From a bacterium (lineage in GTDB: Bacteria; SAR324; NAC60-12), in contig CBDDTI010000747.1 of assembly GCA_965233585.1 (NCBI GenBank), forward strand, positions 608,001 through 672,000: a stretch of 64,000 nucleotides of DNA, read 5' to 3'. The notes under the pieces are model-generated. The model saw nothing but the letters and a program-made list of their open reading frames with translations, did no database searches and was not told the origin of the DNA. This document shows, piece after piece, positions 1,321 to 44,781 of this stretch; position 1 is the first letter of the stretch, and each line of letters opens with the position of its first letter. A program made the translations under genes and the position numbers.

Positions 1321-1431
1321 ATGACACAAGAATCAAGTTCAGAATCAGAAACTTTGACCAAGCAGGTTTGCATCCTTTTCAGTATTGGAATCCTGCTGTT
1401 TACTCTTCCAATCGTTTTTTTCATTTTATGA
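1321..1431 (+). CDS. 36-aa single-TM micro-protein upstream of oxidase operon
   Basis: MTQESSSESETLTKQVCILFSIGILLFTLPIVFFIL; AGGA just upstream; ends 37 nt before coxB. Confidence 0.5.
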   Translation: MTQESSSESETLTKQVCILFSIGILLFTLPIVFFIL

Positions 1432-1468: not shown

Positions 1469-2203
1469 ATGATCTCTTACTTCGTGGAACAAGCATCGGC
1501 TGCTGCCTCAAAAATTGACTTCCTGTTTGACATGATCACTGTCATTGTTGGATTTTGGTTTATTCTGACACAGGGTTTGATTGTTTACTTACTGGTCAAA
1601 TTCAGACGTGGGAAATCTCCCAAAGCTCAGTATATTTCAGGAGAAAAGCATCGTGAGTCTCGTTGGGTACACATTCCTCACTATCTGGTCATTGTTTGTG
1701 ACATTGCAATTATTGCCGTCACCATTCCGCTATGGGGAGAGTTAAAAGTGAACCCAATCGTTCCAGATTTGAAAATCAGAGCAATCGGACAACAATGGTC
1801 TTGGATTTTTATCCACCCAGGAGCCGATGGCATTTTGGACACAGCAGATGACATCAAAACGGTCAATGACCTGAGACTTGTGGTGAACAAAAAGTACCAC
1901 GTTGAGATGCAGTCTCGCGATGTACTCCATGATTTGTCCATTCCAGCTTTCCGTTTCAAACAAGACACAATTCCCGGTCGCTCCGTTTTAGGCTGGTTTG
2001 AGCCAACAAAAACAGGAAATTTTTCAGTGCAGTGTGCTGAAATGTGCGGAATAGGTCATGGTTTAATGGCAGCAAGGGTTCAAGTTCAAACAGAAGAAGA
2101 ACACAAAAAATGGATTGTGTCTGTCCAAAACACACAAGAAGGTGTTGCCCAGACTGAACGAGTTGTAGAGCCGTTTACAGAAAAATTGACTGCAGGTTTC
2201 TAA
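1469..2203 (+). CDS. coxB: Cytochrome c oxidase subunit II (CuA, no fused cytochrome c)
   Basis: Two TM helices, GQQWSW, DVLH and CAEMCGIGHGLM CuA ligands. Confidence 0.95.
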   Translation: MISYFVEQASAAASKIDFLFDMITVIVGFWFILTQGLIVYLLVKFRRGKSPKAQYISGEKHRESRWVHIPHYLVIVCDIAIIAVTIPLWGELKVNPIVPDLKIRAIGQQWSWIFIHPGADGILDTADDIKTVNDLRLVVNKKYHVEMQSRDVLHDLSIPAFRFKQDTIPGRSVLGWFEPTKTGNFSVQCAEMCGIGHGLMAARVQVQTEEEHKKWIVSVQNTQEGVAQTERVVEPFTEKLTAGF

Positions 2204-2265
2204 CTGATTCAAATTTTACAATTCATTTTTAGAAAATCTATTTTATTTTTTTGAGGAGAAGAGTT

Positions 2266-3939
2266 ATGAGTGATCATCACAATCAGAGTTTTTGGAGCAA
2301 GTACGTTTTTTCAGTAGATCACAAAGTGATAGGCATGCAGTATCTGTTTACTGGAATGTTTATGGCTGTGATTGGTGGCTTAATGGCATACGTGTTTAGA
2401 ATGCAACTGGCTTTCCCTGGTGAAGCTGTACCGGGGTTTGGGGTGGTTTCGCCAGCCAACTATAATTCCCTGGTCACGAACCATGGAACCATCATGGTTT
2501 TCTGGGTTGCCATGCCCATTTTACTTGCTGCGCTTGGTAATTTCTTAATTCCGTTGATGATTGGTTGCGATGACATGGTTTTTCCACGGCTCAATCGTCT
2601 TTCCTACCAAATCTTTTTACTGAGTGCCATCGTGTTGATTTTCTCTTGGTTTGTTCCAGGGGGAGGTTTTGGCGGTGCGTGGACTTCTTATCCTCCTCTT
2701 TCTGCACGTGCAGAGTTTAACCATACAGATTGGGGAGCTAGCTTATGGCTTGTGGCAGTTGCATTAGAGATTGTTGCATTTTTAATAGGTGGCATTAACT
2801 TTCTGACAACGACGATGAACTCTAGGGCGCCCGGTATGACAATCTTCCGTTTACCCATCATCGTTTGGATGATCAACATTGCCACAGTGGTTTTTATGGC
2901 TTCCGTTGGACCTTTGGTAGCTGGTGCAATCATGCTTTTTATGGACCAACGTTTGGGAACATCGTTTTTTGTTCCTGACCAAGGCGGTGACCCTATTTTG
3001 TGGCAGCATCTATTTTGGTTTTTTGGACACCCTGAAGTGTACGTAGTCTTATTCCCGCCTATGGGCATTTGTGCAGAAATTTTTACAACTTTTTGCCGAA
3101 AAAAGATATTCGGCTACAAAATCATCATTTACACTGCCATTGCAACGGGTGGACTCAGTTTTATTGTCTGGGCGCACCATCAATTCATTGCAGGAATTGA
3201 CCCGCGGATGGGAACTGTTTTTGCCATCACGACTGTTTTAATTTCCATTCCTGTTGCAGAGATGATCTTTTCTTACATTGCCACACTTTATGGCGGTTCT
3301 ATTGAGTTTAAAACGCCTATGTTGTGGGCATTATCCTTTTTGTTCACTTTCATTCTTGGTGGTGTCACGGGTATTCACTTGGGAGCAAACGCATCTGATG
3401 CCTACCTGCATGATACCTATTTTGTTCTTGCACACTTTCACTATACGTTCTTTCCTATTGCCATCATTGGTTCGTTTGCCGCCTTTTACTATTGGTTTCC
3501 CAAAATGTTTGGAAAGATGCTTGACGAAACGTTAGGCAAAATTCATTGCCTTGGCACAGTTGCTACATTCAACCTTGTGTTCATTCCTCTTTTCTTTTTA
3601 GGACTAGCAGGTCAACATCGTAGAATTTGGGGGTTCACATCTGAGAATTATCCTGAACTTGCCAAATATCAAGATGTTCGTGTGTTTGCCACCGTCTCAT
3701 TGGTTTTCATGTTGCTCTTTCAAATCCCTTTCTTTATCAATCTAATCATCACGTTTCGTAAAAAGACTAAAGATGCGGGCGAAAATCCTTGGAAGGCAAA
3801 TAGCTTAGAATGGCTTACTCCTTCTCCTCCACCACATGGAAACTTCCCGGACGGCATGCCTGAAGTGTATAGAGGACCTTACGAATACAGTCTGCCAGAC
3901 CGTCAAGATGACTACTTTCCCCAATATGTTAAAGCATAA
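2266..3939 (+). CDS. coxA: Heme-copper oxidase subunit I, A1-like active site with atypical proton channels
   Basis: DHKVIG, NHG, WFFGHPEVY, WAHH, HDTYFVLAHFHY, RR; GAGGAG SD before ATG 2266. Confidence 0.95.
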   Translation: MSDHHNQSFWSKYVFSVDHKVIGMQYLFTGMFMAVIGGLMAYVFRMQLAFPGEAVPGFGVVSPANYNSLVTNHGTIMVFWVAMPILLAALGNFLIPLMIGCDDMVFPRLNRLSYQIFLLSAIVLIFSWFVPGGGFGGAWTSYPPLSARAEFNHTDWGASLWLVAVALEIVAFLIGGINFLTTTMNSRAPGMTIFRLPIIVWMINIATVVFMASVGPLVAGAIMLFMDQRLGTSFFVPDQGGDPILWQHLFWFFGHPEVYVVLFPPMGICAEIFTTFCRKKIFGYKIIIYTAIATGGLSFIVWAHHQFIAGIDPRMGTVFAITTVLISIPVAEMIFSYIATLYGGSIEFKTPMLWALSFLFTFILGGVTGIHLGANASDAYLHDTYFVLAHFHYTFFPIAIIGSFAAFYYWFPKMFGKMLDETLGKIHCLGTVATFNLVFIPLFFLGLAGQHRRIWGFTSENYPELAKYQDVRVFATVSLVFMLLFQIPFFINLIITFRKKTKDAGENPWKANSLEWLTPSPPPHGNFPDGMPEVYRGPYEYSLPDRQDDYFPQYVKA

Positions 3940-3959: not shown

Positions 3960-4538
3960 ATGGCACATACTCAACCGATTGCAACAACTCGTTCCGCAAC
4001 TGGAGTTCCAACAGGAAGACTGGCGGTGTGGTGGGTGATTTCCTCTGAAATTTTTATTTTTGGGGGGCTCATTCTGACTTACCTACTCATGCGTTTGGGG
4101 CTGCCTGAATGGGGAGAAGATGCGGCACAGACACACACAGTTGCTGGGGCAATCAATACTTTTTTTCTGTTAACTTCCAGTTTAACGATTGTTCTAGCTC
4201 ACCATGCTGCAGAACATAAAGAATGTGATAAAGCGTTCAAATACATCTGGTTTACAATAGGTTTTGGATTATTGTTTTTGGTCGTCAAAAGCTATGAATA
4301 TACCACCAAAATTGTGCATGACATTGTGTTGACAACCAATGTGTTTTGGAGCTTTTACTACACTACAACGGCTCTTCACGCAACTCATGTGGTTGCTGGA
4401 ATGATCATTATGGGGGTCATCTCTTTTGAGGTCAAAAAGGGGAGAAATTTGCAACGTGTGGAACTCATCGGCATCTATTGGCATTTTGTTGATGTGGTTT
4501 GGATTTTCTTGTTTCCTCTGCTCTACATCGCTAAATAA
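3960..4538 (+). CDS. coxC: Cytochrome c oxidase subunit III (short form)
   Basis: SSEIFIFGG, NTFFLLTSS, LHATHV, YWHFVDVVW. Confidence 0.9.
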   Translation: MAHTQPIATTRSATGVPTGRLAVWWVISSEIFIFGGLILTYLLMRLGLPEWGEDAAQTHTVAGAINTFFLLTSSLTIVLAHHAAEHKECDKAFKYIWFTIGFGLLFLVVKSYEYTTKIVHDIVLTTNVFWSFYYTTTALHATHVVAGMIIMGVISFEVKKGRNLQRVELIGIYWHFVDVVWIFLFPLLYIAK

Positions 4539-4556: not shown

Positions 4557-4940
4557 ATGTCTGCTGAAGCATCTACAAAGCGTTATGTTAAAATTTATTT
4601 TATCTTGCTAGGACTTCTGGTTGTCAGCTTAATTGGTCCAGAAATAGGGATTCAATGGATTACATTAATCACAGCTTTTGGAATTGCCATTGTCAAAGCA
4701 TATATTGTTGTTGCAGAGTATATGCACCTGAAAATTGAGAAGAGAGTTGTAATTTACATGATGGCAGTGTCTCTTGTCATGGTTTTTGCGTTCTTTATTG
4801 GTTCTGCACCTGATGTTTTGTCACACAAAGCAGAGCCTTGGTCTCGTGATGGGACAGTTATCTCAGGCAACTGTATTGCATCAAAAAATGAACATTTCAC
4901 CTGCGTTAAGCAACGTCGTCAACTTTTGGAAGAAGAATAA
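4557..4940 (+). CDS. Cytochrome c oxidase subunit IV family protein
   Basis: 3 TM; AIVKAYIVVAEYMHLKIE COX4_pro-type motif; operon position. Confidence 0.85.
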   Translation: MSAEASTKRYVKIYFILLGLLVVSLIGPEIGIQWITLITAFGIAIVKAYIVVAEYMHLKIEKRVVIYMMAVSLVMVFAFFIGSAPDVLSHKAEPWSRDGTVISGNCIASKNEHFTCVKQRRQLLEEE

Positions 4941-4943
4941 AAG

Positions 4944-5513
4944 ATGCCAAATACAGTGCAAACTCACAATCCCCGTATTCCCAATGGTGTTCTGGGTATA
5001 GGAATGGCAATTATTGTAGAAATCGTTTACTTTGCGGCGCTTGTTAGCTCCTATCTTGTCTTGCGTGCCAACACCGTAGAATGGCCCCCTTGGGGGCAAC
5101 CCAGATTGCCAGTTGAAACCACTGCTTTAAACACTGTGGTCTTGCTTTTAAGCGGTTTCTTTCTTTTTCGTGCAAGGCAACAGTTTGTCAGCCAGCCTCA
5201 AACCTTCCCTGCCAGATTAGTCTTACTTTCCATACTTTGTGGAGCGTTCTTTCTTCTTTTTCAAGGTTATGAATGGGTACGGTTGATTAATTTTGGCTTA
5301 ACGGTTCAATCAGGGCAGTATGGCAGTATTTTCTATTTGCTGATTGGTTCACATGCTCTTCATGTTGCTGCGGGCTTATGTGGACTCTGCTATCTTCACT
5401 ACCAGGGACTCAAAAATTGCATGACAAACGAAATGTCGCTTGTGGGTGCAATGTTTTGGTATTTTGTTGTTGGATTGTGGCCGATTTTGTACGTTTTGGT
5501 GTATCTAATTTAG
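4944..5513 (+). CDS. Second cytochrome c oxidase subunit III paralog
   Basis: NTVVLLLS, QGYEW, YGSIFY, HALHV, FWYFVV. Confidence 0.85.
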   Translation: MPNTVQTHNPRIPNGVLGIGMAIIVEIVYFAALVSSYLVLRANTVEWPPWGQPRLPVETTALNTVVLLLSGFFLFRARQQFVSQPQTFPARLVLLSILCGAFFLLFQGYEWVRLINFGLTVQSGQYGSIFYLLIGSHALHVAAGLCGLCYLHYQGLKNCMTNEMSLVGAMFWYFVVGLWPILYVLVYLI

Positions 5514-5797: not shown

Positions 5798-6706
5798 ATG
5801 AAAGCAAAAAGTGTCGCACTTGCTCTGGCATGCCCTTTGGTTAAAAAATCATTACTTTCGGTGTATTGGGAACTTTTGAAGGTGAGGCTTCTTTCCATGG
5901 CGCTCATCACCCTTGCCCTTGCCTTTTACATGGAGGCTTCTTCTGTCCATGATGTTGTGTTGCTTTTTCATGCTTTAGTTGGGGGGTTTCTTGTTGGAGG
6001 AGGAGGGCATGCCATGAACCAATGGCTGGAAAAAGATTTAGATGCTTTGATGGAGAGAACCCAATCCCGCCCCTTGCCTGCTGAAAAAATTGCTCCTTAT
6101 CATGCCATGTTCTATGGTCTTTCTCTTTCCATAGCAGGTTTTGTGTATCTGGGAATGGCAGTGAATTTGCTTGCCATGGTTTTTGGCATGTTGACATGGT
6201 TTTTGTATGTTTGGGTTTATACGCCGCTCAAGCAAAAAACAATTTGGAATACATGGATTGGTGCCATACCGGGTGCATTACCCACAGTGATTGGATATGT
6301 CTCTGCAACAAATTCGTTGTCGTGGGAAGCTATCAGTTTGTTTAGCCTGCTTTTCTTTTGGCAGATTCCTCATTTTTTTGCGATTGCTGTCATGTATCGT
6401 AAGGACTACCAAAGGGGAAATTATCAGATGCTACCATGCAAAGAAGAGATCCTTCAGAAAACAAGAAGGCATACTTTGGGACATACTTTGTTGACAGTGT
6501 TAGTCAGCTTTTTGCCTGTTTATTTTGGACAAGCAGGATTTGTCTATCTGGCAGGGGCATGTCTTTCAGGAGTAGGCTTTTTGTGGGTCGCATGGCAGTT
6601 TTATCAAAGTCCAAACGTGAACATTGCCCGCCGCTTGTGTATCTCTTCAATCATTTATCTACCTATCGTTTTGTTGGCTCTTGGCATTGACAAATTCATC
6701 TCATAG
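5798..6706 (+). CDS. ctaB: Protoheme IX farnesyltransferase (heme O synthase)
   Basis: NQWLEKDLDALMERTQSRPLP, YTPLKQ, FWQIPHF. Confidence 0.93.
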   Translation: MKAKSVALALACPLVKKSLLSVYWELLKVRLLSMALITLALAFYMEASSVHDVVLLFHALVGGFLVGGGGHAMNQWLEKDLDALMERTQSRPLPAEKIAPYHAMFYGLSLSIAGFVYLGMAVNLLAMVFGMLTWFLYVWVYTPLKQKTIWNTWIGAIPGALPTVIGYVSATNSLSWEAISLFSLLFFWQIPHFFAIAVMYRKDYQRGNYQMLPCKEEILQKTRRHTLGHTLLTVLVSFLPVYFGQAGFVYLAGACLSGVGFLWVAWQFYQSPNVNIARRLCISSIIYLPIVLLALGIDKFIS

Positions 6707-7628
6707 TTTCTTTTGGAGGCTTTCTTATTTTTGTAGCTTCCTGACATGGATATTGATTTCATTTGGCACGATTGTCCGTCTGAAGGGTGCAGGTCTGGCT
6801 TGCCCTGATTGGCCTCTTTGCTATGGTCAAATTGTCCCCCCGCCCGGACTACCGATTGCCTTAGAGGTTGGGCATCGCTTTGTTGCTACCATTCTTGGCA
6901 TTTTTTGCATTCTCCTTGTCACTTTAACTTACAAAAAAGTTTGGAGTGCGTTTAGGATTCACGCCTGGGGTTGTCTGATTTTAGTGACGGTGCAAGGCAT
7001 TTTTGGTGGACTGACTGTGACCATGAAGCTCAACCCGATGATTGTGACTTTTCACCTCATTGGTGGGAATTTAGTCCTTGCTTTGTTTATCTATATGAGT
7101 TACATCAGCAGGTTTGGAGCGGTTAGGAGTTACCAATGGAAGAAAGCGAAACCTCATCTTTTAGCATTGCTGGCATTGTTTGTTGTTTTATTTTCAGGGG
7201 GTTACAACAGCTCCACTTACTCCAGTTATTCATGTCAAGGCTTCCCCGGTTGCCATGCCACCAGTTCTTTTTCATTTGGGGTCAAAGACATTAACCCACA
7301 GATTCCCAAAGTTCATAACTTGTCTGAAGACTTCTTCCCCTTGAATCAATCTACTCTAATTCACATGGTGCATCGTCTTCTTGCTATCACTTTTGGTCTG
7401 GGTATGATGGTCTTTGCATGGAAGCAGCAAGGTCAAGTTCGTAGTATCATCATTCTCTTGTTACTGACTCAGATTGGGGTAGGGGTCGCCAACGCACTCT
7501 TGAGCATTCCTGTTCCTCTTTCTACTCTACATACAGCTATTGCAGCAACACTAGTTGGATTATTGACTTATCAATTCACTCATTCGCTTCATGCTCAGCC
7601 TCACAGTTCAAGACCTACCAGCACTTAA
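6687..7628 (+). CDS. ctaA: Heme A synthase (type 1, Cys-pair form); start uncertain
   Basis: AGLACPDWPLC, EVGHR, QGIFGG, HMVHR, TLH. Confidence 0.88.
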   Translation: MTNSSHSFFWRLSYFCSFLTWILISFGTIVRLKGAGLACPDWPLCYGQIVPPPGLPIALEVGHRFVATILGIFCILLVTLTYKKVWSAFRIHAWGCLILVTVQGIFGGLTVTMKLNPMIVTFHLIGGNLVLALFIYMSYISRFGAVRSYQWKKAKPHLLALLALFVVLFSGGYNSSTYSSYSCQGFPGCHATSSFSFGVKDINPQIPKVHNLSEDFFPLNQSTLIHMVHRLLAITFGLGMMVFAWKQQGQVRSIIILLLLTQIGVGVANALLSIPVPLSTLHTAIAATLVGLLTYQFTHSLHAQPHSSRPTST

Positions 7629-8016
7629 TGCAATCCTCAATACACTAGCATTCTGCTTCATTGTTTCGGCAATCATTGCTATCAAAAAAGGCAATATTCC
7701 ACTACATAAAAGATGTATGTTGACTGCGACATTCATATCCGCATTGTTTTTAACAAGTTACAGCATTTATCACTATTACGTGGGGTCTGTTGCCTTTACA
7801 GGGGTTGGTTTAATACGTGTCGTTTATTTTACTATCTTGATTCCTCACATCATTTTAGCGGCAGTTCAAGTTCCTTTGATTTTGTTCACGCTTTACTTTG
7901 CACTTTCTTCCAAAATTTCCAAACATCGTCGTCTTGCCAAGTGGACAACTCCAATCTGGTTGTTTGTTTCAGTGACTGGTGTCATTATTTATCTGATGCT
8001 TTATCACATGGTTTAG
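7591..8016 (+). CDS. DUF420 (CtaM-like) membrane protein
   Basis: LPALNAILN, HKRCML, FLTSY..YH, HIILA, HRRLAKW..PIWLFVSVTG. Confidence 0.85.
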   Translation: MLSLTVQDLPALNAILNTLAFCFIVSAIIAIKKGNIPLHKRCMLTATFISALFLTSYSIYHYYVGSVAFTGVGLIRVVYFTILIPHIILAAVQVPLILFTLYFALSSKISKHRRLAKWTTPIWLFVSVTGVIIYLMLYHMV

Positions 8017-8017
8017 A

Positions 8018-8764
8018 ATGTCTAAAATCATTGATGTCAAAAACTTGTACACCCATTATGGAAGTCATGCCATTCATACCAACATCAGTTTTCATGTCAA
8101 TCAAGGTGAAATTTTCATCATTCTTGGGGGCAGTGGTTGTGGTAAGAGTACGCTACTCAAACACATAGGCAGATTGCTGACTCCCACACATGGGCAAATC
8201 CTTATTGATCAGGTAGATGTTGCCAATTTGCATGAAGAAGCACTTGTCAAAGCGATGCAACCTGTTGGCTTTATGTTTCAGTCGGGTGCTTTGTTCGGTT
8301 CGCTGAATTTGCTGGAAAATGTCTGCGTGCCATTATACAAATATACTGATTTTCCATCACGATTGATTGAAAGCATTGCCTTTGCAAAACTGAAGTTGGT
8401 AGGTTTAAGCGGTTTTGAAAAGTATTATCCCCATGAGATTAGTGGAGGCATGAAAAAAAGAGCAGGCGTTGCAAGGGCAATGGCACTTGACCCTAAAATC
8501 TTATTGCTAGACGAACCTAGTGCGGGGCTTGACCCCATCAGTGCAGATGAACTGGACGAGCTGATTTTAGAACTCAATCGTGCATTACAAGTGACATTTG
8601 TGATTGTGACGCATGAATTACCCAGCATTTTCAAAATTGCACAACGCGTCATTATGCTGGGGCAATGCAGGATTCAGGCAGAAGGCAAGCCTGAAGATTT
8701 AAAACACTCTCCAAAACCTTGGATTTCTAATTTTTTTCAAAGACGTGGTAAGTTTAAGCAATGA
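8018..8764 (+). CDS. mlaF: MlaF/Mkl-family ABC ATPase
   Basis: GGSGCGKS, FQSGALF, ISGGMKKRAGVARA, DEPSAGLDP. Confidence 0.85.
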   Translation: MSKIIDVKNLYTHYGSHAIHTNISFHVNQGEIFIILGGSGCGKSTLLKHIGRLLTPTHGQILIDQVDVANLHEEALVKAMQPVGFMFQSGALFGSLNLLENVCVPLYKYTDFPSRLIESIAFAKLKLVGLSGFEKYYPHEISGGMKKRAGVARAMALDPKILLLDEPSAGLDPISADELDELILELNRALQVTFVIVTHELPSIFKIAQRVIMLGQCRIQAEGKPEDLKHSPKPWISNFFQRRGKFKQ

Positions 8765-10209
8765 ATCCTAATGCCAGATACACTCTTGTTGGCATTGCTT
8801 TTTCTGTTTTGGTGATTGCATTAGCCGCCATTATTTTATGGATGTCTAACCTTTCATCAAATCAAGAATTAAAACTCTACTCCTCCTTTTTGCAAGAGGC
8901 TGTCTCTGGATTGTCTCCTCAAGCGCCTGTGAAATATAATGGGGTAGATGTTGGCTTTGTGCAGGATATTCGTATCTCTCAAGAACGAAACAATCAGATT
9001 GAGCTAGTGCTGGCGATTGATTCCAAAGTGGTGATTCGTGAAAATGACCGAGTCATCTTAACCTCACAGGGCATTACAGGCTTGCAATATATTGAAATCA
9101 AAGGGAGTATAGCACCATCTGCTCCTGTTGAAGTAACAACAGGCAATGACCACCCTGTCATTCTCTCGCAACCTTCTACATTCCAAGAGATTCGCTCTTC
9201 CATTGACCCTGTCATCAAAAACATTGGGCAGACAACAGAAAAATTTAGTCAAATTTTAGAACAAACAGACTCGCAAAAAATAGATGAAATCATAGACAAT
9301 ATTCACGCCTTGACCTCCATGCTTGCAACTGAATCTAAGCCTATTGTGCAAAAGGTTAGTACTATCACTACCAATGCTGAACAAACTTCTGTTGACTTCA
9401 AACAAGTGATGAAAGATGTCAAGTTGTTGACAAAGGAGGTGTTGAAAACCAATAAAAATGTCAAAAACACCATTCAAACATTAGAAAAATCTGTCAAGAC
9501 ACTGACCAAACAAGTCAATCAATCCCTACAAACAACCGTTCCCAAATTAGAACAGTCTTTAGAGGAAGTAGATTCCTTACTGGTGGAAGTGAAGGCGACA
9601 TCGCAACAAGCCAAAGTTTTTATGAGTTCTTTGGAACAGACCAGAAACCAAGTCAATCAATTACTTCAAAAATCAAATTCCGCAATAGACCAAGTCCAGT
9701 TTGCCAGTATCAACCAAGAATTACAGAACACTCTGGCAGAAATTCAATCACTTTCCCAAACCATTCAAACTACTCTGACAGAAGTCAAACCTGCTCAAAC
9801 TAGCCAAGAATTACAGAACACTCTGGCAGAAATTCAATCGCTTTCCCAGACCATTCAAACTACTCTGACGGAAGTCAAACCTGCTCAAACTAGCCAAGAA
9901 TTACAGAACACTCTGGCAGAAATTCAATCACTTTCCCAGACCATTCAAACTACTCTGACAGAAGTTAAACCTGCTCAAACTAGCCAAGAATTACAGAACA
10001 CTCTGGCAGAAATTCAATCGCTTTCCCAAACCATTCAAACTGCTCTGACAGAAGTCAATGTTTCTGAAACAGGAGAAAACGTTCGTCAGACACTCAAAAA
10101 TTTACAACAGGCTACTCAATCCTTGATACAAACGGCAGAAACACTCAATCAAAGTCCCTCCTCTCTTATCTTTAGCGACCCAAAAAAAGAAGTCCAAATT
10201 CTGCCTTAA
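8761..10209 (+). CDS. MCE (MlaD/PqiB-like) protein with repeat-extended helical region
   Basis: N-terminal TM, VSGL...APVKYNGVDVG, QGITGLQYIEI, long amphipathic helix, C-terminal PSSLIF. Confidence 0.88.
   Translation: MNPNARYTLVGIAFSVLVIALAAIILWMSNLSSNQELKLYSSFLQEAVSGLSPQAPVKYNGVDVGFVQDIRISQERNNQIELVLAIDSKVVIRENDRVILTSQGITGLQYIEIKGSIAPSAPVEVTTGNDHPVILSQPSTFQEIRSSIDPVIKNIGQTTEKFSQILEQTDSQKIDEIIDNIHALTSMLATESKPIVQKVSTITTNAEQTSVDFKQVMKDVKLLTKEVLKTNKNVKNTIQTLEKSVKTLTKQVNQSLQTTVPKLEQSLEEVDSLLVEVKATSQQAKVFMSSLEQTRNQVNQLLQKSNSAIDQVQFASINQELQNTLAEIQSLSQTIQTTLTEVKPAQTSQELQNTLAEIQSLSQTIQTTLTEVKPAQTSQELQNTLAEIQSLSQTIQTTLTEVKPAQTSQELQNTLAEIQSLSQTIQTALTEVNVSETGENVRQTLKNLQQATQSLIQTAETLNQSPSSLIFSDPKKEVQILP
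9714..10058 (+). repeat. Intragenic tandem repeat, 90-bp unit x ~3.8
   Basis: ccaagaattacagaacactctggcagaaattcaatc at 9714, 9804, 9894, 9984; encodes SQELQNTLAEIQSLSQTIQTTLTEVKPAQT. Confidence 0.97.
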
Positions 10210-10332
10210 TCCAATGCACAATATTTGCATCTCACTTGTCGTCTTGTTCTAAATTTTTTCACATTTTTTGTTTTGCGTAAATTTTATGCAGAATTGAAAA
10301 ATAGGTTGAAGCCAGCTTCTTAACTCTCAAAC

Positions 10333-11100
10333 ATGGCTAAACGAATTTGCCTACAAATAGCTGTTTTGACGATCTGGTGCATACACGTCCATGCTCAGCA
10401 AGTTGAAAATGACCAACTTGAAATCACCTATCAAATTTTAGAACCATTTCTGATTAAAAATGTCGGGCTTTCTGAACAAGCAGATGAAAGAGTCCGTGAT
10501 AGCAAGGGGTATGGTCTTCTTTATGTGTTGGGATTAGGTGAAGTTTTAGGACTGACTGCCAGCACAACATCAGTCCGTTACAAAGCCCGCATCTACCATT
10601 CTGCCGACTTGAAGCTAGAAGGAGAACACCCCGAATATGACTACTTTATCCAAGAAGTCAAATATTTGGATTACAACATTGACCTTGAAGTCAACACCAT
10701 ACGTTATGGAATGAGGCTTTCAGGGGGACTTTATAGTTTAGTAGGTCTCACCGTGCGTTCAGAACCTAAAGTTTTTATAGAAGGAGGCATGACCTCTAGT
10801 GCGGTCAAAGGTACTGTTGATTTGGTTTTGGAAGACGAAGAAGAACCTGTTGCCAGTTTGAAAGCAGTGAAAAGTGACGACCAACACTATTGGCTTGCAG
10901 GCGTTGTCATCGCTGTGACCGAACATATTCATTTTTCTTTTTATTCCAAAAAAGAAGAAACTTATAGGCTACAAGTGGAAAGTTGCAACTCTGTGAAGTT
11001 AGGCATCACAGGTTGTGATGGCATCAAAAAGAAAGCAGATGAGAAAAAACAATATGACTTCATTTCTTCTATCAGTTTCAGTATCGGCACAAATTGGTAA
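10333..11100 (+). CDS. Exported hypothetical protein, possible outer-membrane beta-barrel
   Basis: Signal peptide (VHA/QQ), alternating beta pattern, C-terminal W. Confidence 0.55.
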   Translation: MAKRICLQIAVLTIWCIHVHAQQVENDQLEITYQILEPFLIKNVGLSEQADERVRDSKGYGLLYVLGLGEVLGLTASTTSVRYKARIYHSADLKLEGEHPEYDYFIQEVKYLDYNIDLEVNTIRYGMRLSGGLYSLVGLTVRSEPKVFIEGGMTSSAVKGTVDLVLEDEEEPVASLKAVKSDDQHYWLAGVVIAVTEHIHFSFYSKKEETYRLQVESCNSVKLGITGCDGIKKKADEKKQYDFISSISFSIGTNW

Positions 11101-11103
11101 AAG

Positions 11104-12477
11104 TTACCTTTGATAGGCAGTGTGTTGCTTTCTACGTCTGTTGGTAAAGTATTCGCTGGTGTCTTTAGAAACTAGCTCATAGAGAATTGCCCGTTTTTTA
11201 GGTGCGGCACGCAAGATTCTACCAAGCCTCTGCACATGCTCGCGGACACTTCCACTGCCTGACACAATGATCGCAATGCTTGCCTCTGGAACGTCAACTC
11301 CTTCATTTAAAACTTTGGAGGTCATCAGTACTGGGTAAGCTCCTGTGCGGAATTTGCTCAGCAAATCCTCTCTTTCTTTTGTCTTGGTGTGATGGGTGAG
11401 TATTGGAAGAAAAAATAAATTTCCAAGGCGATATGCCATGTCATTATCTTGTGTGAAAACAAGGATTCTTTCTCCATGATGTTTTTGAATGAGTGACCAA
11501 ACAGTGTCAAGTTTGGACTCTGACGCCTGACTGAGTTTCTTTTGCAGTAAATAGGCTTCAAAGGCTTCTCGTCCAAATTGAGAACGGCTACTTTTCCATA
11601 AAAATTGACTCCAACCGTTCTTGCTTCCAAAATTGATACGTTCTGCACGAATAAAATTGATGTAAACACTGCGTGCCTTGTCATATTCCAGACGCTCGGA
11701 CTCACTTAATTCTACTTCCATCGTGACAATGTCATAAGGTGCAAGTGTTCTGCCTTCTAACTCTGTGACATCAGTTTCATAGCAAAGTTGTCCGCAAATG
11801 TCATAAAGAATGGACTCCCGCCCATCTGCACGTTCAGGGGTTGCACTTAAACCCAGACGAAAAGGTGCAATGGAGGCAATGGCAATATGCTGAAACCTCT
11901 CACTTGGCAGATGGTGGCATTCATCAAAAACAACCATGCCAAAACGATTGCCAATGCGGTCAATGTGAATCAAAGCAGAGTCATAAGTTGTGACAGTCAA
12001 ATCTTCTATCTCGTGATAGCCTCCTCCAAGCAATCCAACAGGCACGTTGAAAAACTCTTGCATTGTGCTGTGCCACTGTCTCATCAAATCTATTGTAGGA
12101 ACATGCACCAATGTTGGACGCTGCGTTGCTTGAATGGCAAACATTGCCAAAATCGTCTTGCCTGCACCTGTTGGCAAAGAAATCACACCTTGCTGTCCTG
12201 ACTTTGTCCAACTAGCCAATGCTTCCGACTGATAAGGACGCAGTGGAATTTGCTGTTTAAAAGCGAGCGTCAAGGGTGAGAACTGCTTGGCTTGGTCTTC
12301 ATAAGGAATGCCTTGCTGATGCAAAGTCATTGCAATAGAGCGGTAAAAGTAGGCAGGAGAACGTAGCATTTGAGTGCGAACGTCCCATTGCACACCATGT
12401 AATCCCAATGGATTGTGCTTGGAGTAGTTTTGCAAAAGTAGTGTTCCTTTGTCAAACTCAAGTAAGATTTTGCTCAT
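11104..12477 (-). CDS. SF2 DEAH helicase, XPB/Rad25 (SSL2)-like
   Basis: LRPYQ, LPTGAGKT, DECHH, LSATPER, LNEGVDVP, QRLGRILR. Confidence 0.9.
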   Translation of the reverse strand: MSKILLEFDKGTLLLQNYSKHNPLGLHGVQWDVRTQMLRSPAYFYRSIAMTLHQQGIPYEDQAKQFSPLTLAFKQQIPLRPYQSEALASWTKSGQQGVISLPTGAGKTILAMFAIQATQRPTLVHVPTIDLMRQWHSTMQEFFNVPVGLLGGGYHEIEDLTVTTYDSALIHIDRIGNRFGMVVFDECHHLPSERFQHIAIASIAPFRLGLSATPERADGRESILYDICGQLCYETDVTELEGRTLAPYDIVTMEVELSESERLEYDKARSVYINFIRAERINFGSKNGWSQFLWKSSRSQFGREAFEAYLLQKKLSQASESKLDTVWSLIQKHHGERILVFTQDNDMAYRLGNLFFLPILTHHTKTKEREDLLSKFRTGAYPVLMTSKVLNEGVDVPEASIAIIVSGSGSVREHVQRLGRILRAAPKKRAILYELVSKDTSEYFTNRRRKQHTAYQR

Positions 12478-23627: not shown

Positions 23628-25583
23628 TTAGAATTGTAACTTTGCAAATTGTTGAAGTGTGATTTGAGTGCCAAGTTCTTTGGAAGTGTCTTTGAGAAGT
23701 TGCTCAATCGTTTGGTCTGGGTTTTTGACAAATGGTTGTTTCAAAACACAAACTTCGTTCAGGAATTTTTTAAGACGTCCTGCGACCATTTTCTCAATGA
23801 TTTCGGGAGGCTTACCAGATTCTTGAGCTTGGGCAATAAAGATTTCTTTCTCTTTTTCAATCAATGCGGGATTGATTTCGTCAGGAGAGATAGATTCTGC
23901 AGGAGTCGCAGCAACGTGCATGGCAATATCTTTGGCAACTGCAGAAAGACGGGCTTGGTCGCATTCCCCCTTTGTTGCAAGGGCAATCAGTACACCAATT
24001 TTGCCAGTTGTATGCAGATACCCACCAATGACCCCTTGTTCTACTGAGACTTGCTTGGCGTCTAAAAATTGAACATTCTCACCAAGAGTGGCAATAGAAT
24101 CATTCAAAATCTCTTGGACTGTTTTGTCTGTGCTGACTTTTTGGTCTGCGAAGTCAGCAACCCCGTTGATTTGAGCATGCTTGCTGAGAGTTTGAAGTAA
24201 TTCTAAAAATTGCTCGTTCTTTGCTACAAAATCAGTTTCGCATGCAATTTGAACAAGTGCGGCACTAGTTTGTGAGTCATTGAAAGAAAGACCTATTCCT
24301 CCATCTTTGGTTTCTCGGTCAGATTTTTTGAGGGCTTTTGCCTGCCCCGTTTTTCTCAGATGCTCTTTGGCAGCCTCTAAATCACCCCCAACTTCTTGCA
24401 ATGCTTTTTTACACTCCATCATGCCAGCACCGCTGGCCTCCCTGAGTTCTTTGACTAATTTAGCATTGATCTTTCCGTCTGATTGATTTTCCATTGGTTT
24501 GGTAGTTTTTTCGGGTTCAGGGGTTGTGTCTGCTGGAGCGGCGGCTTTGCTAGCTTCTTTCTTATCTTTTTGGGAAGTAGCTTTGTCGGTCTCCTTAGTT
24601 GTGTTTGCTTGAGCATCGGCTTTGCCAGTTTCTTTCTTACTTTTCTCTGTCTTCTTTTTGGTGTCTGCTTTTTTTGCTTGTTCAGGAACGTTTTCTACTG
24701 AAGGCGAATCAGGGGCGTTGACCTGAACGTTTTCTTTTTGAGACTTGGCTTGAGATGCCTTTTTTTCTTCAATCTGTAAACGTTCTTCTCTCAATGCCTT
24801 ACCTTCTGAAGGCGAATCAGGGGCGTTGACCTGAACGTTTTCTTTTTGAGACTTGGCTTGAGATGCCTTTTTTTCTTCAATCTGTAAACGTTCTTCTCTC
24901 AGCGCCTTACCTTCTTTCACTGCAAGGCACAGAGTTTCTACAAAAAGCCTAATAGAGCGAATAGAATCATCATTGCCCGGTATCATCATAAAAAGGTCAT
25001 CAGGGTCAGAGTTAGTGTCAGCAATTCCAAGCACAGGAATTGAAAGTTTTTGGGCTTCACTAATAGCAAGATGTTCATGGTTACAATCAATGACAAAAAT
25101 GGCAGAAGGGAATTTTGTCATGTTGCGAATCCCCCCAAGCGATTGTTCTAACTTTTGACGTTTGCGATGGATTTGAAGAGCTTCTTTCTTCAGCAAAGAA
25201 GGGTAGCTTTCATCATCTCCTGCAAGGCTTTCATATTCCTCCAGCCTTGAGATAGATTGCCTAATCGTTGCAAAGTTAGTCAGCATGCCCCCCAGCCAAC
25301 GATGGCTGACATAGAAAGAGCCACATTCTGTTGCGTATTGTTTGATGATGTCTGACGCTTGCAACTTAGTACCGATGAACAGAACTTCCTTGCCTTCTTC
25401 ACTCAGTTGGCGAATGTATTCATACGCAGATTTGAGTTTTTGTAGGGTGTGTTGGAGATTGATGATGTGAATCCCCTGTTTTTCCCCATAGATGTAAGGA
25501 GCCATTTTAGGATTCCACCTTTGAGTTTGATGCCCGAAGTGGACACTTGCTTCCACGAAGCTCTGAAGAGAAATATTTGTCAT
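23628..25583 (-). CDS. rpsB: Fused 30S ribosomal protein S2 / elongation factor Ts (rpsB-tsf)
   Basis: S2 motifs HFGH..RWNPKM, RWLGGMLTN, PGNDD; charged linker; EF-Ts motifs VKELREASGAGMMECKKAL, CETDFVAKN, DIAMHVAA; no stop between. Confidence 0.93.
   Translation of the reverse strand: MTNISLQSFVEASVHFGHQTQRWNPKMAPYIYGEKQGIHIINLQHTLQKLKSAYEYIRQLSEEGKEVLFIGTKLQASDIIKQYATECGSFYVSHRWLGGMLTNFATIRQSISRLEEYESLAGDDESYPSLLKKEALQIHRKRQKLEQSLGGIRNMTKFPSAIFVIDCNHEHLAISEAQKLSIPVLGIADTNSDPDDLFMMIPGNDDSIRSIRLFVETLCLAVKEGKALREERLQIEEKKASQAKSQKENVQVNAPDSPSEGKALREERLQIEEKKASQAKSQKENVQVNAPDSPSVENVPEQAKKADTKKKTEKSKKETGKADAQANTTKETDKATSQKDKKEASKAAAPADTTPEPEKTTKPMENQSDGKINAKLVKELREASGAGMMECKKALQEVGGDLEAAKEHLRKTGQAKALKKSDRETKDGGIGLSFNDSQTSAALVQIACETDFVAKNEQFLELLQTLSKHAQINGVADFADQKVSTDKTVQEILNDSIATLGENVQFLDAKQVSVEQGVIGGYLHTTGKIGVLIALATKGECDQARLSAVAKDIAMHVAATPAESISPDEINPALIEKEKEIFIAQAQESGKPPEIIEKMVAGRLKKFLNEVCVLKQPFVKNPDQTIEQLLKDTSKELGTQITLQQFAKLQF
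24698..24914 (-). repeat. 108-bp tandem duplication in S2-Ts linker
   Basis: ctgaaggcgaatcaggggcgttgacc at 24698 and 24806; encodes EGKALREERLQIEEKKASQAKSQKENVQVNAPDSPS twice. Confidence 0.95.
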
Positions 25584-35237: not shown

Positions 35238-35828
35238 TTATCTGGAGAAGTGGAGTTTTGTTGTGATTCCTGCCCGAGAGATCAGTCTAACATCATCTTC
35301 AAAATAGAGGATATCTGGGGTTGCTCCATTTTTAACTTCTACAAGGAAGCCATCATCAATGCCTTCGGTGATAATTTTGATTGACGCAAATTTTTGATGA
35401 GTAAACATATCAGCAAACCCCACAGGGCATTCTTCCCTCAGAAAAACCTTTGTCAGCTTTTTTACAAAGCCATTATCATTGATTCCTTGCCACTGAAATG
35501 CAGGATTGTTTGAATCACAGGACATTTTGTACGTGTCTCCATTGAAATCAACTGATCCTTTGCCTACATACTTGACGTTAAATGTAGAATCCAGTACCCA
35601 TTCCACTTCAACACCAAAAGTGCTACCTTCGTTCAACTCCAAAGTAACACTATTGCCCTCTATCTTGGTCAGTTTGAACGTTCCGTCCCCCAAGTCAAAG
35701 TCTCTGGTCTCCTCGTCATCTTCTTCTTTTGCACATGATGCAAGAGCAAGAGGAATAGCAATGAATCCAATCATGCAAGATTGCTTGAGCCATTTTTCAA
35801 CACCAAATTTTTTTAGCAAGTTTTTCAT
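35238..35828 (-). CDS. Lipoprotein paralog A
   Basis: Lipobox LASC; conserved TRDFDLGDGTFKLTK; two mature Cys. Confidence 0.85.
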   Translation of the reverse strand: MKNLLKKFGVEKWLKQSCMIGFIAIPLALASCAKEEDDEETRDFDLGDGTFKLTKIEGNSVTLELNEGSTFGVEVEWVLDSTFNVKYVGKGSVDFNGDTYKMSCDSNNPAFQWQGINDNGFVKKLTKVFLREECPVGFADMFTHQKFASIKIITEGIDDGFLVEVKNGATPDILYFEDDVRLISRAGITTKLHFSR

Positions 35829-35889
35829 TTATAACCTTTTTATGATAACAGTTTAAGATTCAGCACCAAACTAATGATGATGAATCAGG

Positions 35890-35918
35890 TTTGTGATGAC
35901 AAATCAAGTCATCACAAA
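35890..35918. repeat. 29-bp palindrome, copy 2
   Basis: tttgtgatgacaaatcaagtcatcacaaa. Confidence 0.9.
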
Positions 35919-35938
35919 AAGATGAAGCAAGGAAAGGA

Positions 35939-36538
35939 TTATCTAAAGAAGTGGAGTTTGATTGTGTCGTTTGCTGCAAAAGGTCGCAAAGTCCCATTCT
36001 CAAAATAGAGAACGTTTTGTTCTCCATCATTTTTGATTTCTACAAGGAATCCATCGTCAATGTCTTTGGTGATGATCTTGATTGATTCTTGTTTCTCAGG
36101 TCGGAACACATCAGCAGGACCCACAGGGCAATCTCGTAAGAAAAAAGTTTTTTCTGTAGCGGCTTCTTCTACGATGCCATCACTATTGATTTTTTTCCAC
36201 TGTAGCTTGCCAGTGACATCAGTGCTACAAGACATGGACAGAGTCGTGCCATTTGCAGCATTAAATCCTCCCTTGCCGACATACTTGAAGTTAAAGGCAG
36301 ATTCTGTTTCCCAATCTACCTCAATGCCAAAAGTGCTACCAGCGTTCATTTCAAAAGGACGACCACCGGTTTCTATCTTGGTGAGTTTGAACGTTCCATC
36401 TCCCAAGTCAAAGTCTCTGGTCTTCTCATCATCATCTGTGGCACATGCTGACAAAGCGAGAGGCATGGCGACAAAGCCAATCGTGCAGGATTGTTTGACC
36501 CATTTTTTCAACACCGAATTTCTCAAAAAATTTTTCAT
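35939..36538 (-). CDS. Lipoprotein paralog B
   Basis: Lipobox LSAC; same conserved framework. Confidence 0.85.
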   Translation of the reverse strand: MKNFLRNSVLKKWVKQSCTIGFVAMPLALSACATDDDEKTRDFDLGDGTFKLTKIETGGRPFEMNAGSTFGIEVDWETESAFNFKYVGKGGFNAANGTTLSMSCSTDVTGKLQWKKINSDGIVEEAATEKTFFLRDCPVGPADVFRPEKQESIKIITKDIDDGFLVEIKNDGEQNVLYFENGTLRPFAANDTIKLHFFR

Positions 36539-36595
36539 TGATGACCTTTTTATAATAATGGTTAAAGTTAAAACAAAGATTAATTAAAAAATTAA

Positions 36596-37213: not shown

Positions 37214-37274
37214 TTATATCCTTTTTTATGATAATAGTTAAAGATTCAACACCAACTAATGATGATGAATCAGG

Positions 37275-37303
37275 TTTGTGATGACAAATCAAGTCATCAC
37301 AAA
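37275..37303. repeat. 29-bp palindrome, copy 3
   Basis: tttgtgatgacaaatcaagtcatcacaaa. Confidence 0.9.
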
Positions 37304-37324
37304 AAAGATGAGGCAAGGAAAGGG

Positions 37325-44736: not shown

Positions 44737-44781
44737 ATCAGCCAAATCAAAGAAATGATTTTGAATTTCAAACGGAAGGGG

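Follow-up and report, generated by a model that had tools for sequence, protein, structure and literature searches.

The lysine of the K channel is among the most studied residues in bioenergetics, and the oxidase engineered to carry methionine in its place (K362M, R. sphaeroides (Rs) numbering) is almost inactive. For type A (A1) enzymes, Table 2 of PMC3084760 gives K354, T351, S291 and Y280 as the K channel and D124, N199, N113, N131, Y35, S134, S193 and E278 as the D channel (P. denitrificans (Pd) numbering). Family-A oxidases that naturally lack the lysine are already on record: in Degli Esposti et al. 2021 (PMC8239418) they are classed as 'KC-channel', 'hybrid' or 'modified', and natural replacements of Lys by Met include those of Thioclava A2, Acidihalobacter and the Sulfuritalea CyoCAB type. 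In the same paper, the KC-channel class comprises K-less family-A enzymes with protonable residues at the KC positions, and Rs A319 and G327 are among the residues lining the KC channel of C-family oxidases. This channel, the single input channel of the cbb3 enzymes, is built largely of Ser, His and Tyr on helix VII, and was mapped onto family A in that paper.

The window (the whole 64,000-nt stretch of DNA analysed here) carries an oxidase operon. The genes of this region are:

1321..1431, + strand: short ORF (36 aa) just ahead of coxII, whose translation shows a single hydrophobic stretch
1469..2203, + strand: CoxII, the CuA subunit, 244 aa (Pfam COX2 and COX2_TM; cytochrome c domain absent)
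2251..3939, + strand: CoxI, family-A1 heme-copper oxidase subunit I, 562 aa from TTG 2251
3960..4538, + strand: first COX3 homologue, 192 aa (Pfam COX3)
4557..4940, + strand: COX4_pro, caa3-type subunit IV, 127 aa (PF03626; TIGR02229 at 37.5 bits, cut-off 37.25)
4944..5513, + strand: second COX3 homologue, 189 aa (Pfam COX3)
5798-6706, + strand: CtaB, heme O synthase (TIGR01473 at 271.5 bits, above the cut-off of 210.3)
6624-7628, + strand: ORF of CtaA, heme A synthase (PF02628), whose true start is probably further in
7591-8016, + strand: DUF420 protein (PF04238)

As the earlier note had held, the operon is intact, with the heme O/A machinery (CtaB and CtaA) alongside the CuA subunit II, both COX3 homologues, COX4_pro and the DUF420 protein. 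A doublet of COX3 genes is the layout of coxMNOP. The two COX3-family genes after COX2 and COX1 likewise recall the COX operon subtype a-III, defined by a doublet of COX3 homologs and described as coxMNOP-like (PMC6431628; PMC8239418 Table S1), but in the window COX4_pro stands between the two; the entry for that subtype in Table S1 reads 'K-channel: yes'.

CoxI (database copy P0002, 557 aa from a start at ATG 2266) matched Pfam COX1 (PF00115) at 436 bits, and there is good support for predicting that it forms the catalytic core of an O2 reductase of family A1 that is complete, of the heme A type and equipped with CuA. In phmmer searches of the PDB it matched A-type COX1 chains (E about 1e-118), with about 36-40% identity to canonical A1-type aa3 enzymes; 3OM3, among the structure matches, is a structure of the K362M mutant itself. 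The AF2 model (pLDDT 90.9) has the 12-TM fold of COX1, with Foldseek TM scores of 0.86-0.89 to A-type COX1 chains, which, together with those matches and the CuA subunit II, bears out the type A assignment made previously. We considered and rejected membership in the B family (Tyr, Thr or Ser as K analogue, no D channel), the C family (Tyr-II, cytochrome c subunits) and the NOR families (Tyr cofactor absent, FeB Glu): Tyr-I, CuA and a D-channel entrance are present, ba3 chains matched CoxI only at E about 1e-8, and cbb3 and NOR chains gave no match at E<=0.001 in the PDB search.

Residues were mapped by phmmer alignment of CoxI (P0001) to R. sphaeroides subunit I (1M56_A), which runs without a gap across helices VI-VIII, where the Rs residue equals the query number plus 24. 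The segments of interest are:

2569..2595, + strand: D-channel entrance, with the double Asp D107-D108 (D108 = Rs D132), N115 (= N139) and R116 in place of Rs N140
2767..2781, + strand: upper D channel, remodelled, with E173 (= Rs S197), A176 (= S200) and F177 (= S201)
3028..3042, + strand: HPEVY motif, with H260 (CuB ligand), E262 (= E286) and Y264 (= cross-linked Tyr288)
3073..3078, + strand: helix VI, with A275 (= S299, the K-channel Ser lost) and E276 (= H300)
3103..3159, + strand: helix VI-VII loop and helix VII, with K285 (= P309), I291 (= P315), T295 (= A319), T299 (= I323) and S303 (= G327)
3244..3264, + strand: helix VIII, with S332 (= A356), P334, V335 (= T359), A336 (= G360), E337 (= I361) and M338 (= K362)

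The three substitutions reported earlier, S299 to A275 (GCA 3073-3075), T359 to V335 (GTT 3253-3255) and K362 to M338 (ATG 3262-3264), were confirmed codon by codon in this ungapped alignment, as was the Glu directly before the K362 position, E337 (GAG 3259-3261). A second Glu on helix VI, E276 (GAA 3076-3078), is not new, as Glu or Asp is common at the Rs H300 position in K-bearing relatives (41 Glu and 13 Asp in the 108 comparison rows defined below), and we dropped the reading of two new Glu residues. All six His ligands (H78, H260, H309, H310, H395 and H397), Y264 and E262 are in place, again as described before. Of the A1 K-channel set, Y280 alone is thus kept (K354, T351 and S291 being M338, V335 and A275), and of the A1 D-channel set, seven of eight residues are kept (D108, N183, N97, N115, Y31, S118 and E262), S193 having become Phe177.

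These changes are shared by a large group of relatives. With identity as the only criterion (at least 60% over at least 450 aligned columns), 138 of 257 aligned rows formed a clade, and 108 more distant rows served as the comparison set for clade-specific columns. Clade members, 64-76% identical across several phyla, come from Myxococcota, Bdellovibrionota, Gemmatimonadota, Verrucomicrobiota and others. No clade row has Lys at the K362 column (125 Met, 9 Ile, 4 Leu), so that neither a Lys at this position nor a retained PTGxK in close homologs speaks against the earlier reading; the S299 column is Ala in 132/138, and the T359 column is Ile in 130, Val in 7 and Leu in 1. The same holds for the query with its 120 best database matches, in which the K362 column has Lys in 0/121 and the residue before it is Glu in 117/121. 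Without exception (138/138 each), clade rows keep the metal ligands, Y288 and E286, the Y288 count referring to the residue and not to its cross-link.

The Glu before K362 was called new, and among the rows sampled it is indeed unique to the clade, occurring in none of the 108 more distant ones; within the clade, the I361 column reads Glu in 133, Ile in 2, Gln in 2 and Val in 1. Five of the 138 members, L005 included, are without it, so it cannot be indispensable. The clade was monophyletic in FastTree (131 rows) and in a quick IQ-TREE run (50 rows), at 100* in both, which sustains the claim of a distinct clade, and it was nested within a K-bearing group of Gemmatimonadota, Binatia and Acidobacteria. 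The lineages that branch off next to it in succession (L020, P0123 and L019) have neither the Lys nor the Glu, so loss of the Lys preceded gain of the Glu. The alignments and trees give good support for a subfamily that is widespread, monophyletic and strongly conserved and whose S299, T359 and K362 have all turned non-polar. That the changes are a private decay or a pseudogene of this one genome, a reading favoured by the missing Lys and nothing more, deserves practically no credence, as the frame is open, the ligands are intact, and 138 of 138 relatives, which belong to several phyla and share 60-94% identity, are altered likewise.

Compared with the canonical A1 aa3 enzymes of R. sphaeroides, P. 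denitrificans and mitochondria, the clade shares the fold, the six His, Tyr288, Glu286 in HPEVY, D132/N121/N139/N207/S142/Y33, R481/R482 and the CuA subunit II. It differs in S299A, T359V/I, K362M, S201F, S200A and S197E and in that E101 of subunit II is not conserved throughout; E361, S356, T319/T323/S327, K309, Q335, H480 and an Asp-bearing insertion in TM2 of subunit II are new in the clade. The K-less variants of Degli Esposti et al. share family-A COX1, Tyr-I and the absence of Lys at K354 (Pd)/K362 (Rs). At the KC positions (Pd G304, M308, A311 and G319, equal to Rs 312, 316, 319 and 327, a mapping that we took from residue spacing in the table of PMC8239418 and that is not the authors' own assignment), the window's enzyme has G288, I292, T295 and S303 and the clade G/A, F/V/I, T and S; protonable residues stand at two of the four, as they do in table entries classed KC-channel, such as 'G I S S'. 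The Thr and Ser were found in 134 and 134 of 135 motif-defined rows and in 134 and 137 of the 138 identity-defined ones.

The pattern of the clade (Y, A, M, I/V, x, E) matches no row of the PMC8239418 supplementary table for Fig. S7, and none of the paper's five supplementary files contains the string 'Myxococc'. Neither the I361 position nor the CoxII TM2 Asp nor S201F/S197E is covered by a column of the table, and most of the variants it lists have lost the CoxII Glu, unlike the window's enzyme. Our literature search, whose scope did not extend to Degli Esposti 2020 (BBA), found no characterisation of this clade, as an ordinary oxidase or otherwise. The claim of a distinct K-less clade is thereby narrowed: the clade is distinct, but loss of the Lys in family A, replacement by Met included, had been published (PMC8239418), and it is the residue pattern, as read from the alignment, that appears to be missing from that table.

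The clade carries several polar residues of its own. Near-invariant among them are, in Rs numbering, T319 (134), T323 (133), S327 (137), S356 (138), K309 (133) and Q335 (138 of 138 rows), at positions where the other rows mostly have Ala (319), Ile (323), Gly (327), Ala or Gly (356), Pro (309) and Met (335). On helix VII they make up a polar ladder, specific to the clade and spaced i+4, in the direction of the CuB ligands H309 and H310. The ladder is in part shared with K-bearing enzymes, which also have Ser at Rs 319 (23/108) and Rs 327 (32/108), and its lowest rung (Rs P315) is Thr in 108/138 clade rows and Ile (I291) in the window's own protein. By AF2 secondary structure, helix VII starts on the N side about 10 residues away from T299, and helix VIII ends on the N side about 9 residues away from E337. 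A Lys nearby was named in the earlier note as something that might compensate for the loss; a clade-specific one does exist, K285 (133/138), though its place is the N-side loop between helices VI and VII and not the middle of the membrane. The likeness to the K(C) channel of cbb3 oxidases would be an input based on helix VII without Lys; helix VI Tyr-I, CuA, the heme A machinery, the D-channel entrance and Glu286 set the window's enzyme apart from the C family.

In subunit II, two segments are of interest:

1655..1657, + strand: CoxII E63, which aligns (1M56_B, 1QLE_B) with R. sphaeroides E101(II), the Glu at the entrance of the classic K channel
1679..1702, + strand: CoxII TM2 segment H71...C77-D78, with a 4-residue insertion bearing D78 that K-bearing relatives lack

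The CuA ligand columns (H154, C189, E191, C193, H197 and M200) are kept in 120-121/121 CoxII rows. D78, an Asp embedded in the membrane, is present in 20/20 rows from GTDB loci and in 121/121 rows of the wider CoxII search, and H71 in 19/20 and 120/121. The E63 column has Glu in 3/20 clade rows versus 37/37 K-bearing rows at the GTDB loci; a loss of the entrance Glu as a rule of the clade was nevertheless discarded, since 80/121 close CoxII matches have it and the position is merely non-invariant.

The predicted CoxI-CoxII complex scored 0.91, against 0.01 for the best control, on a scale whose mark is reached by 116/157 solved complexes and 2/215 mismatched pairs; the runs agreed in at least 96% of contacts, with partner pLDDT of at least 82. 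This model leans on solved homologues, so its pass may be memory, and it may mishandle the TM2 insertion; we drew on it for its list of interface residues only. The predicted interface names K285, I291, S332 and E337 of CoxI and E63/S64, H71 and D78 of CoxII, and does not include V335 or M338. Together with a helical-wheel estimate, this list, which names residues rather than pairs, puts E337 on the side of helix VIII that faces subunit II and not on the T359/K362 face. The model thus tells against the idea, raised in the earlier note, of a Glu-based channel in which this residue would be a simple in-channel stand-in for the Lys.

From these observations, we suggest that the enzyme still reduces O2 and that the protons which a K channel supplies while the heme a3-CuB site is being reduced come in through the same sector of the protein, by a rebuilt route, a reading that draws on alignments and models and for which we put the chances at about even. 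Protons would enter at the cytoplasmic side of the subunit I/II interface, by way of K285 and I291 (Thr in most members) of CoxI and H71 of CoxII, with E63 where present. They would then move up the new polar ladder T295, T299 and S303 on helix VII, and/or across a buried carboxylate pair formed by D78 of CoxII and E337 on helix VIII of CoxI and then S332, ending at Tyr264. Such a path would be akin to the helix VII K(C) channel of cbb3 oxidases and to the 'KC/hybrid' variants catalogued in family A. The D channel keeps its entrance and Glu286, with its upper part rebuilt as well (S201F, S197E). The Phe at S201 might be a sign of impairment in the D channel also, something for which re-routing of the K path offers no explanation.

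The more specific version, in which a carboxylate relay between the subunits (the Asp of the CoxII insertion paired with the Glu that helix VIII of CoxI carries on its outer side) feeds the helix VII ladder in place of the Lys K channel, and the rebuilt upper D channel (Phe for Ser201, a second Glu next to Glu286) goes with altered gating or a changed H+/e- stoichiometry, is tentative, and we would sooner expect it to fail than to hold. Were it true, protons would enter by a path without precedent among the solved heme-copper oxidases.

The strongest rival to the rebuilt route is that the K route is gone and that chemical and any pumped protons all pass through a modified D channel. The three classic K residues of subunit I are all non-polar, and the D-channel entrance seems reinforced, with the double Asp D107-D108, R116 and Q120 (D131', R140' and Q144' in Rs positions) each 138/138 in the clade; D132, N121, N139, N207, S142 and E286 are kept, and a second Glu, E173 (E197'), likewise in 138/138, sits one turn below Glu262 in sequence. 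But the Ser that defines this channel, S201 (Pd S193), which is Ser in 86 and Thr in 9 of the 108 other rows, is Phe in 138/138, and S200 is Ala in as many, which looks like a narrowing rather than a widening, and neither the CoxII Asp nor the new, invariant polar positions of helices VII and VIII would be explained. The B and C families have a K-type channel only, and we know of no heme-copper oxidase with a D channel alone, which also counts against this explanation; we consider it unlikely.

Less probable still is a slow or poorly coupled oxidase in which the K function was never replaced and turnover is slow or pumping absent, serving O2 scavenging or a special electron donor, and in which E337 and D78 are structural, for instance by hydrogen-bonding to each other and so fixing the lengthened TM2 against helix VIII. 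Both residues do lie at the modelled subunit interface, a few members lack the Glu, and clade CoxI and CoxII fall under the NCBI equivalog cut-offs (571.1 bits against 670.75 for CoxI in TIGR02891, CtaD_CoxA; 136.5 against 147.7 for CoxII in TIGR02866, CoxB). Such an enzyme would, however, hardly be expected to hold so many polar intramembrane residues under very strong purifying conservation across phyla, or to come with a full heme A and assembly set, and a buried Asp at 121/121 would be unusual in a purely structural role.

We regard as very unlikely that the clade serves another chemistry or coupling ion, be it NO reduction, another substrate or Na+ translocation via the buried carboxylates. 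Two membrane-embedded carboxylates at one depth could be cited for it, as could the repeated evolution of NO reductases from heme-copper oxidases (PMC11214002), but in the same source O2 reductases are recognised by their Tyr cofactor and three CuB His, and these are invariant here. CuA is intact, no Na+-site motif was seen, and with the active-site Tyr and the CuB and heme ligands unchanged, nothing pointed to the Na+ coupling or the other substrate that the earlier note had entertained.

The clade offers a natural counterpart to the engineered mutant: a large multi-phylum group with Met at K362, its catalytic ligands intact and a full assembly operon, in which a small, sharply defined set of apparently compensating changes is spread over two subunits. 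It would serve as a natural test of what the K path essentially provides (charge, a water wire or a dielectric effect) and of whether a pump of the A type can work on an input channel resembling that of the C type, and its list of residues is ready for mutagenesis. The clade also matters for annotation: its proteins fall under the equivalog cut-offs, and public records name them 'cbb3-type cytochrome c oxidase subunit I', a label that is misleading.

Turning to the neighbourhood, no cytochrome c gene was found beside the window's operon, and CxxCH occurs in the window in one long ORF only (inside UvrA), with three more in short frames of 55-132 aa. A scan of the ORFs upstream of coxII gave no family match at L018 and L019, and a cytochrome c gene directly upstream of coxII at six of the eight clade loci scanned (L001, L003, L005, L008, L012 and L016). 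The gene order of the window's operon, II-I-III-IV-III, recurs in L003, L005, L008 and L016. L005, which is without the Glu, is the only clade locus sampled whose record lacks a MAG label.

The oxidase subunit I of the window (CoxI) is encoded by an ORF of 562 codons on the + strand (2251-3939) and carries the Pfam assignment COX1 (436 bits); in a phmmer search of all PDB chains it matched A-type subunit I chains with E values of about 1e-118 to 1e-100. The phmmer alignment with the R. sphaeroides chain 1M56_A (numbering marked Rs) was gap-free from helix VI through helix VIII, CoxI residue n corresponding to Rs n+24:

CoxI residues and their Rs counterparts in the alignment to 1M56_A
A275: Rs S299
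E276: Rs H300
V335: Rs T359
A336: Rs G360
E337: Rs I361
M338: Rs K362
E262: Rs E286
Y264: Rs Y288

An earlier note had proposed that S299 is replaced by Ala, T359 by Val and K362 by Met, with a Glu before the K362 site, and these changes were borne out by the gap-free alignment. The codon positions given for these residues were exact, and the six His ligands, described as intact, were all found in CoxI, as were R481/R482 (Rs). Together, these observations confirm that the classic K-channel residues (S299/T359/K362) have been replaced. The Glu at Rs H300, which is part of the helix VI motif quoted in that note, is not unusual: among 108 more distant rows, most of them K-bearing, 54 have E or D at this site.

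In a word-indexed protein search in which 8000 candidates were scored, all 120 matches listed were 70-100% identical to CoxI; when these were aligned with the query (MAFFT), Lys was found at the K362 column in 0/121 rows and Glu at the preceding column in 117/121. A scan of GTDB species genomes yielded 80 loci, 78 of them with a CoxI frame (L028 and L029 were left out). The K-less motif occurred in L001-L018 (64-73% identity), labelled as Myxococcota, Bdellovibrionaceae, Gemmatimonadota/Longimicrobiales, Puniceicoccaceae, Bradymonadia, Eisenbacteria, one unclassified bacterium and one Klebsiella MAG; L019 and L020 had neither Lys nor Glu, 55 loci kept VP[ST][AG][IV]K, and two acidobacterial loci (L064 and L080) had lost the Lys separately. 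The CoxI of these last two (about 10001-11700) shows K to L and K to V inside a K-bearing group, with Ser299 kept. At L075, a clade-type operon, the CoxI frame (about 10290-11429) breaks before helix VIII, through a frameshift or an assembly error. In the MAG titled Klebsiella pneumoniae (L014), the cox operon is K-less, of clade type, and falls among Myxococcota and Gemmatimonadota sequences; the label or binning of this MAG looks wrong.

An exhaustive search of representatives placed the K-less CoxI clade in essentially one 50%-identity cluster: the top representative was 68% identical, the second 63% (matching query residues 8-406 only), shorter fragments 60-72%, and the next full-length ones at most 45%. 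An initial, motif-defined clade was circular for its three defining columns, and counts were taken from a recount in which membership was set by identity alone (at least 60% over at least 450 columns; 138 of 257 aligned rows). Lys was found in 0/138 of these rows, the columns reading M125/I9/L4 at K362, E133/I2/Q2/V1 at I361, A132 at S299 and I130/V7/L1 at T359, supporting that the K-less pattern with its Glu is shared by homologues and is not private decay.

The clade was monophyletic with support 100* both in FastTree (131 rows, 32 of the clade) and in a quick IQ-TREE run under a site-mixture model (50 rows, 16 of the clade), upholding the suggestion of a distinct oxidase clade. It is nested in a larger, starred group otherwise made up of K-bearing enzymes from Gemmatimonadota, Binatia and Acidobacteriota. 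The sisters that branch successively next to the clade, L020 with the protein P0123 and then L019, lack the Lys and have Ile or Val at the Glu site, and with the clade they form a starred K-less group of 19 rows (IQ-TREE, 50 rows); loss of the Lys therefore preceded gain of the Glu. A further K-less pair (P0127 and P0212; K to I, both Ser kept) took no settled position in the tree. Since the Lys state changed at least 3 times on the 50-row tree, and 16 of 108 rows below 50% identity are without Lys, its loss is recurrent in family A. One representative, P0261, carries a Glu at the Lys position itself.

A column-wise comparison of clade and non-clade rows revealed additional replacements, counted in the identity-defined rows except where stated:

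Clade-specific replacements in CoxI
Rs A356 to Ser, 138/138; window S332
Rs P309 to Lys, 133/138; window K285
Rs P315 to Thr, 108/138; window I291
Rs A319 to Thr, 134/138; window T295
Rs I323 to Thr, 133/138; window T299
Rs G327 to Ser, 137/138; window S303
Rs M335 to Gln, 138/138; window Q311
Rs W366 to Tyr, 123/135 motif-defined rows; window Y342

On helix VII, positions 315, 319, 323 and 327 (Rs) are spaced i+4 and make a ladder leading up to the CuB ligands H333/H334, where it stops. Rs P480, adjoining the heme-propionate arginines, is His in 138/138 rows. The D-channel entrance (D132, N121, N139, N207, S142 and Y33) is kept in the clade, as is E286, and P131 to Asp (138/138) makes a double Asp at that entrance; the upper D channel has changed, with S201 to Phe, S200 to Ala and S197 to Glu (window E173), all in 138/138 rows. 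N140 to Arg and W144 to Gln are each found in 138/138.

The CuA ligands of subunit II (CoxII) are intact. At the Rs E101(II) column, the classic K-channel entrance, Glu is present in 37/37 K-bearing loci and in 3/20 clade-type rows from the GTDB loci, and the window protein with its 120 closest database matches reads E80/Q23/H13/L3/Y2, the window retaining the Glu as E63; judged by these sequences, the entrance Glu is relaxed across the clade, not abolished. CoxII TM2 is four residues longer in the clade than in K-bearing relatives, and the insertion bears an Asp (D78, 'VCD' motif) in 20/20 GTDB-locus rows and 121/121 database rows; H71 is His in 19/20 and 120/121. In L020 and L005 this Asp is already there, yet the CoxI Glu is absent.

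The AlphaFold2 model of CoxI (pLDDT 90.9, pTM 0.92; 50-row alignment) superposed on A-type COX1 chains with TM 0.86-0.89. Ideal-helix arithmetic puts E337 about 160 degrees off the T352/T359/K362 face of helix VIII, a helix that is actually kinked at P334. The predicted CoxI-CoxII complex scored 0.91 (best control, 0.01), a mark attained by 116/157 solved complexes and 2/215 mismatched pairs, with at least 96% contact agreement between runs and partner pLDDT of at least 82; because like complexes are already solved, this score may reflect those structures and adds nothing on binding, and the model was used for its interface list alone. The list names K285, I291, S332 and E337 of CoxI and T34/Q35, E63/S64, H71 and D78 of CoxII; V335, M338, T328, T295, T299 and S303 are absent from it, which leaves their place uncertain. 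Residue counts from the membrane ends of the models place D78(II), E337(I) and T299(I) at comparable depths, suggesting that E337 most likely faces subunit II beside D78 and not the classic channel lumen.

The O2-reductase active site is intact and strongly constrained, the classic K residues are gone, and the new invariant polar residues form a compact set in the K-channel sector of the complex and the upper D channel. We consider it very probable that the clade is a distinct functional subfamily without a canonical K channel; that it has a re-routed K-type proton path specifically is, in our judgement, an evenly balanced proposition. Protons of the reductive half-cycle are supplied by the K channel (PMC7196763); in the clade we infer a rebuilt route, which would enter at the subunit I/II interface on the N side, continue along the helix VII ladder, through the D78-E337 pair plus S332, or by both, and end at Tyr264. 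The main rival to such a path is a D-channel-only enzyme; less likely are a slow, uncoupled scavenger whose carboxylates are purely structural and an enzyme for another substrate or ion. Decay is excluded as an explanation.

Natural family-A COX1 proteins without the Lys are already known, and many are tabulated in which it is replaced by V, I, M, L, F, T or A (PMC8239418, Fig. S7 table). They comprise enzymes that iron oxidisers encode in rus operons, those of the CyoCAB subtype, and enzymes of Elusimicrobia, Calescamantes, Methylacidiphilum, Halobacteriovorax, Bacteriovorax and several archaea. In that study they are classed as 'KC-channel', 'hybrid' or 'modified', and repeated loss is inferred (Degli Esposti et al. 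2021, PMC8239418). From the spacing in the table we equate its KC positions, four in number, with Rs G312, M316, A319 and G327; as the clade has Thr at A319 and Ser at G327, it would be 'KC-channel'-like in those terms. The clade's residue pattern is in no row of the Fig. S7 table, whose columns do not include I361, S201/S197 or the TM2 Asp of CoxII; 'Myxococc-' was not found in the paper's five supplementary files, and full-text literature searches found no description or assay of the clade. Under the type A definition in Table 2 of PMC3084760, the window enzyme has 7/8 D-channel residues and 1/4 K-channel residues. CoxI and CoxII fall under the NCBI equivalog cut-offs for CtaD and CoxB, and public records of relatives are named generically 'cbb3-type cytochrome c oxidase subunit I'. 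Absence of the Lys is in itself not new; the particular two-subunit solution appears to be undescribed and is directly testable.

The window operon resembles subtype a-III, which has a doublet of COX3 (PMC6431628), except that COX4_pro lies between the two COX3 genes of the window. The full gene order, II-I-III-IV-III, is shared by the window with L003, L005, L008 and L016; K-bearing Gemmatimonadota relatives (L021 and L027) have II-I-III-IV and an acidobacterial one (L033) II-I-III-III. Directly 5' of coxII lies an ORF of 36 codons that contains a single hydrophobic stretch (1321-1431, +). In 6/8 clade loci scanned, a cytochrome c gene occupies this place and gives two Cytochrom_C matches; no c-type cytochrome gene adjoins the window operon.

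Elsewhere in the window we observed:

8761-10209 (+): MCE/MlaD-family protein adjoining an MlaF-like ATPase; repeat at 9714-10058 (+), 3.8 tandem copies of 90 bp (30 aa), 96% matches
23628-25583 (-): ribosomal protein S2 (TIGR01011, residues 4-227) and elongation factor Ts (TIGR00116, residues 371-647) as one 651-codon ORF, no intervening stop
35238-37924 (-): four tandem paralogues of ~200 aa (identity to the first, 55-58%), each with a lipoprotein-like N-terminal signal, an invariant Cys at position 32 and no NCBIfam match
39331-44745 (-): UvrA of double length (1804 aa), matched by standard UvrA models; 1360 bits to PRK00635 (1809 positions; cut-off 3054)
62497-63878 (+): adenine DNA methyltransferase-like ORF, then a 195-aa ORF weakly matching the model of IscB, an RNA-guided endonuclease (36 bits; cut-off 175)

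The S2 and Ts Pfam domains occur together in many database proteins of 550-700 aa (nearest match, 54% identity), so S2-Ts fusions recur.
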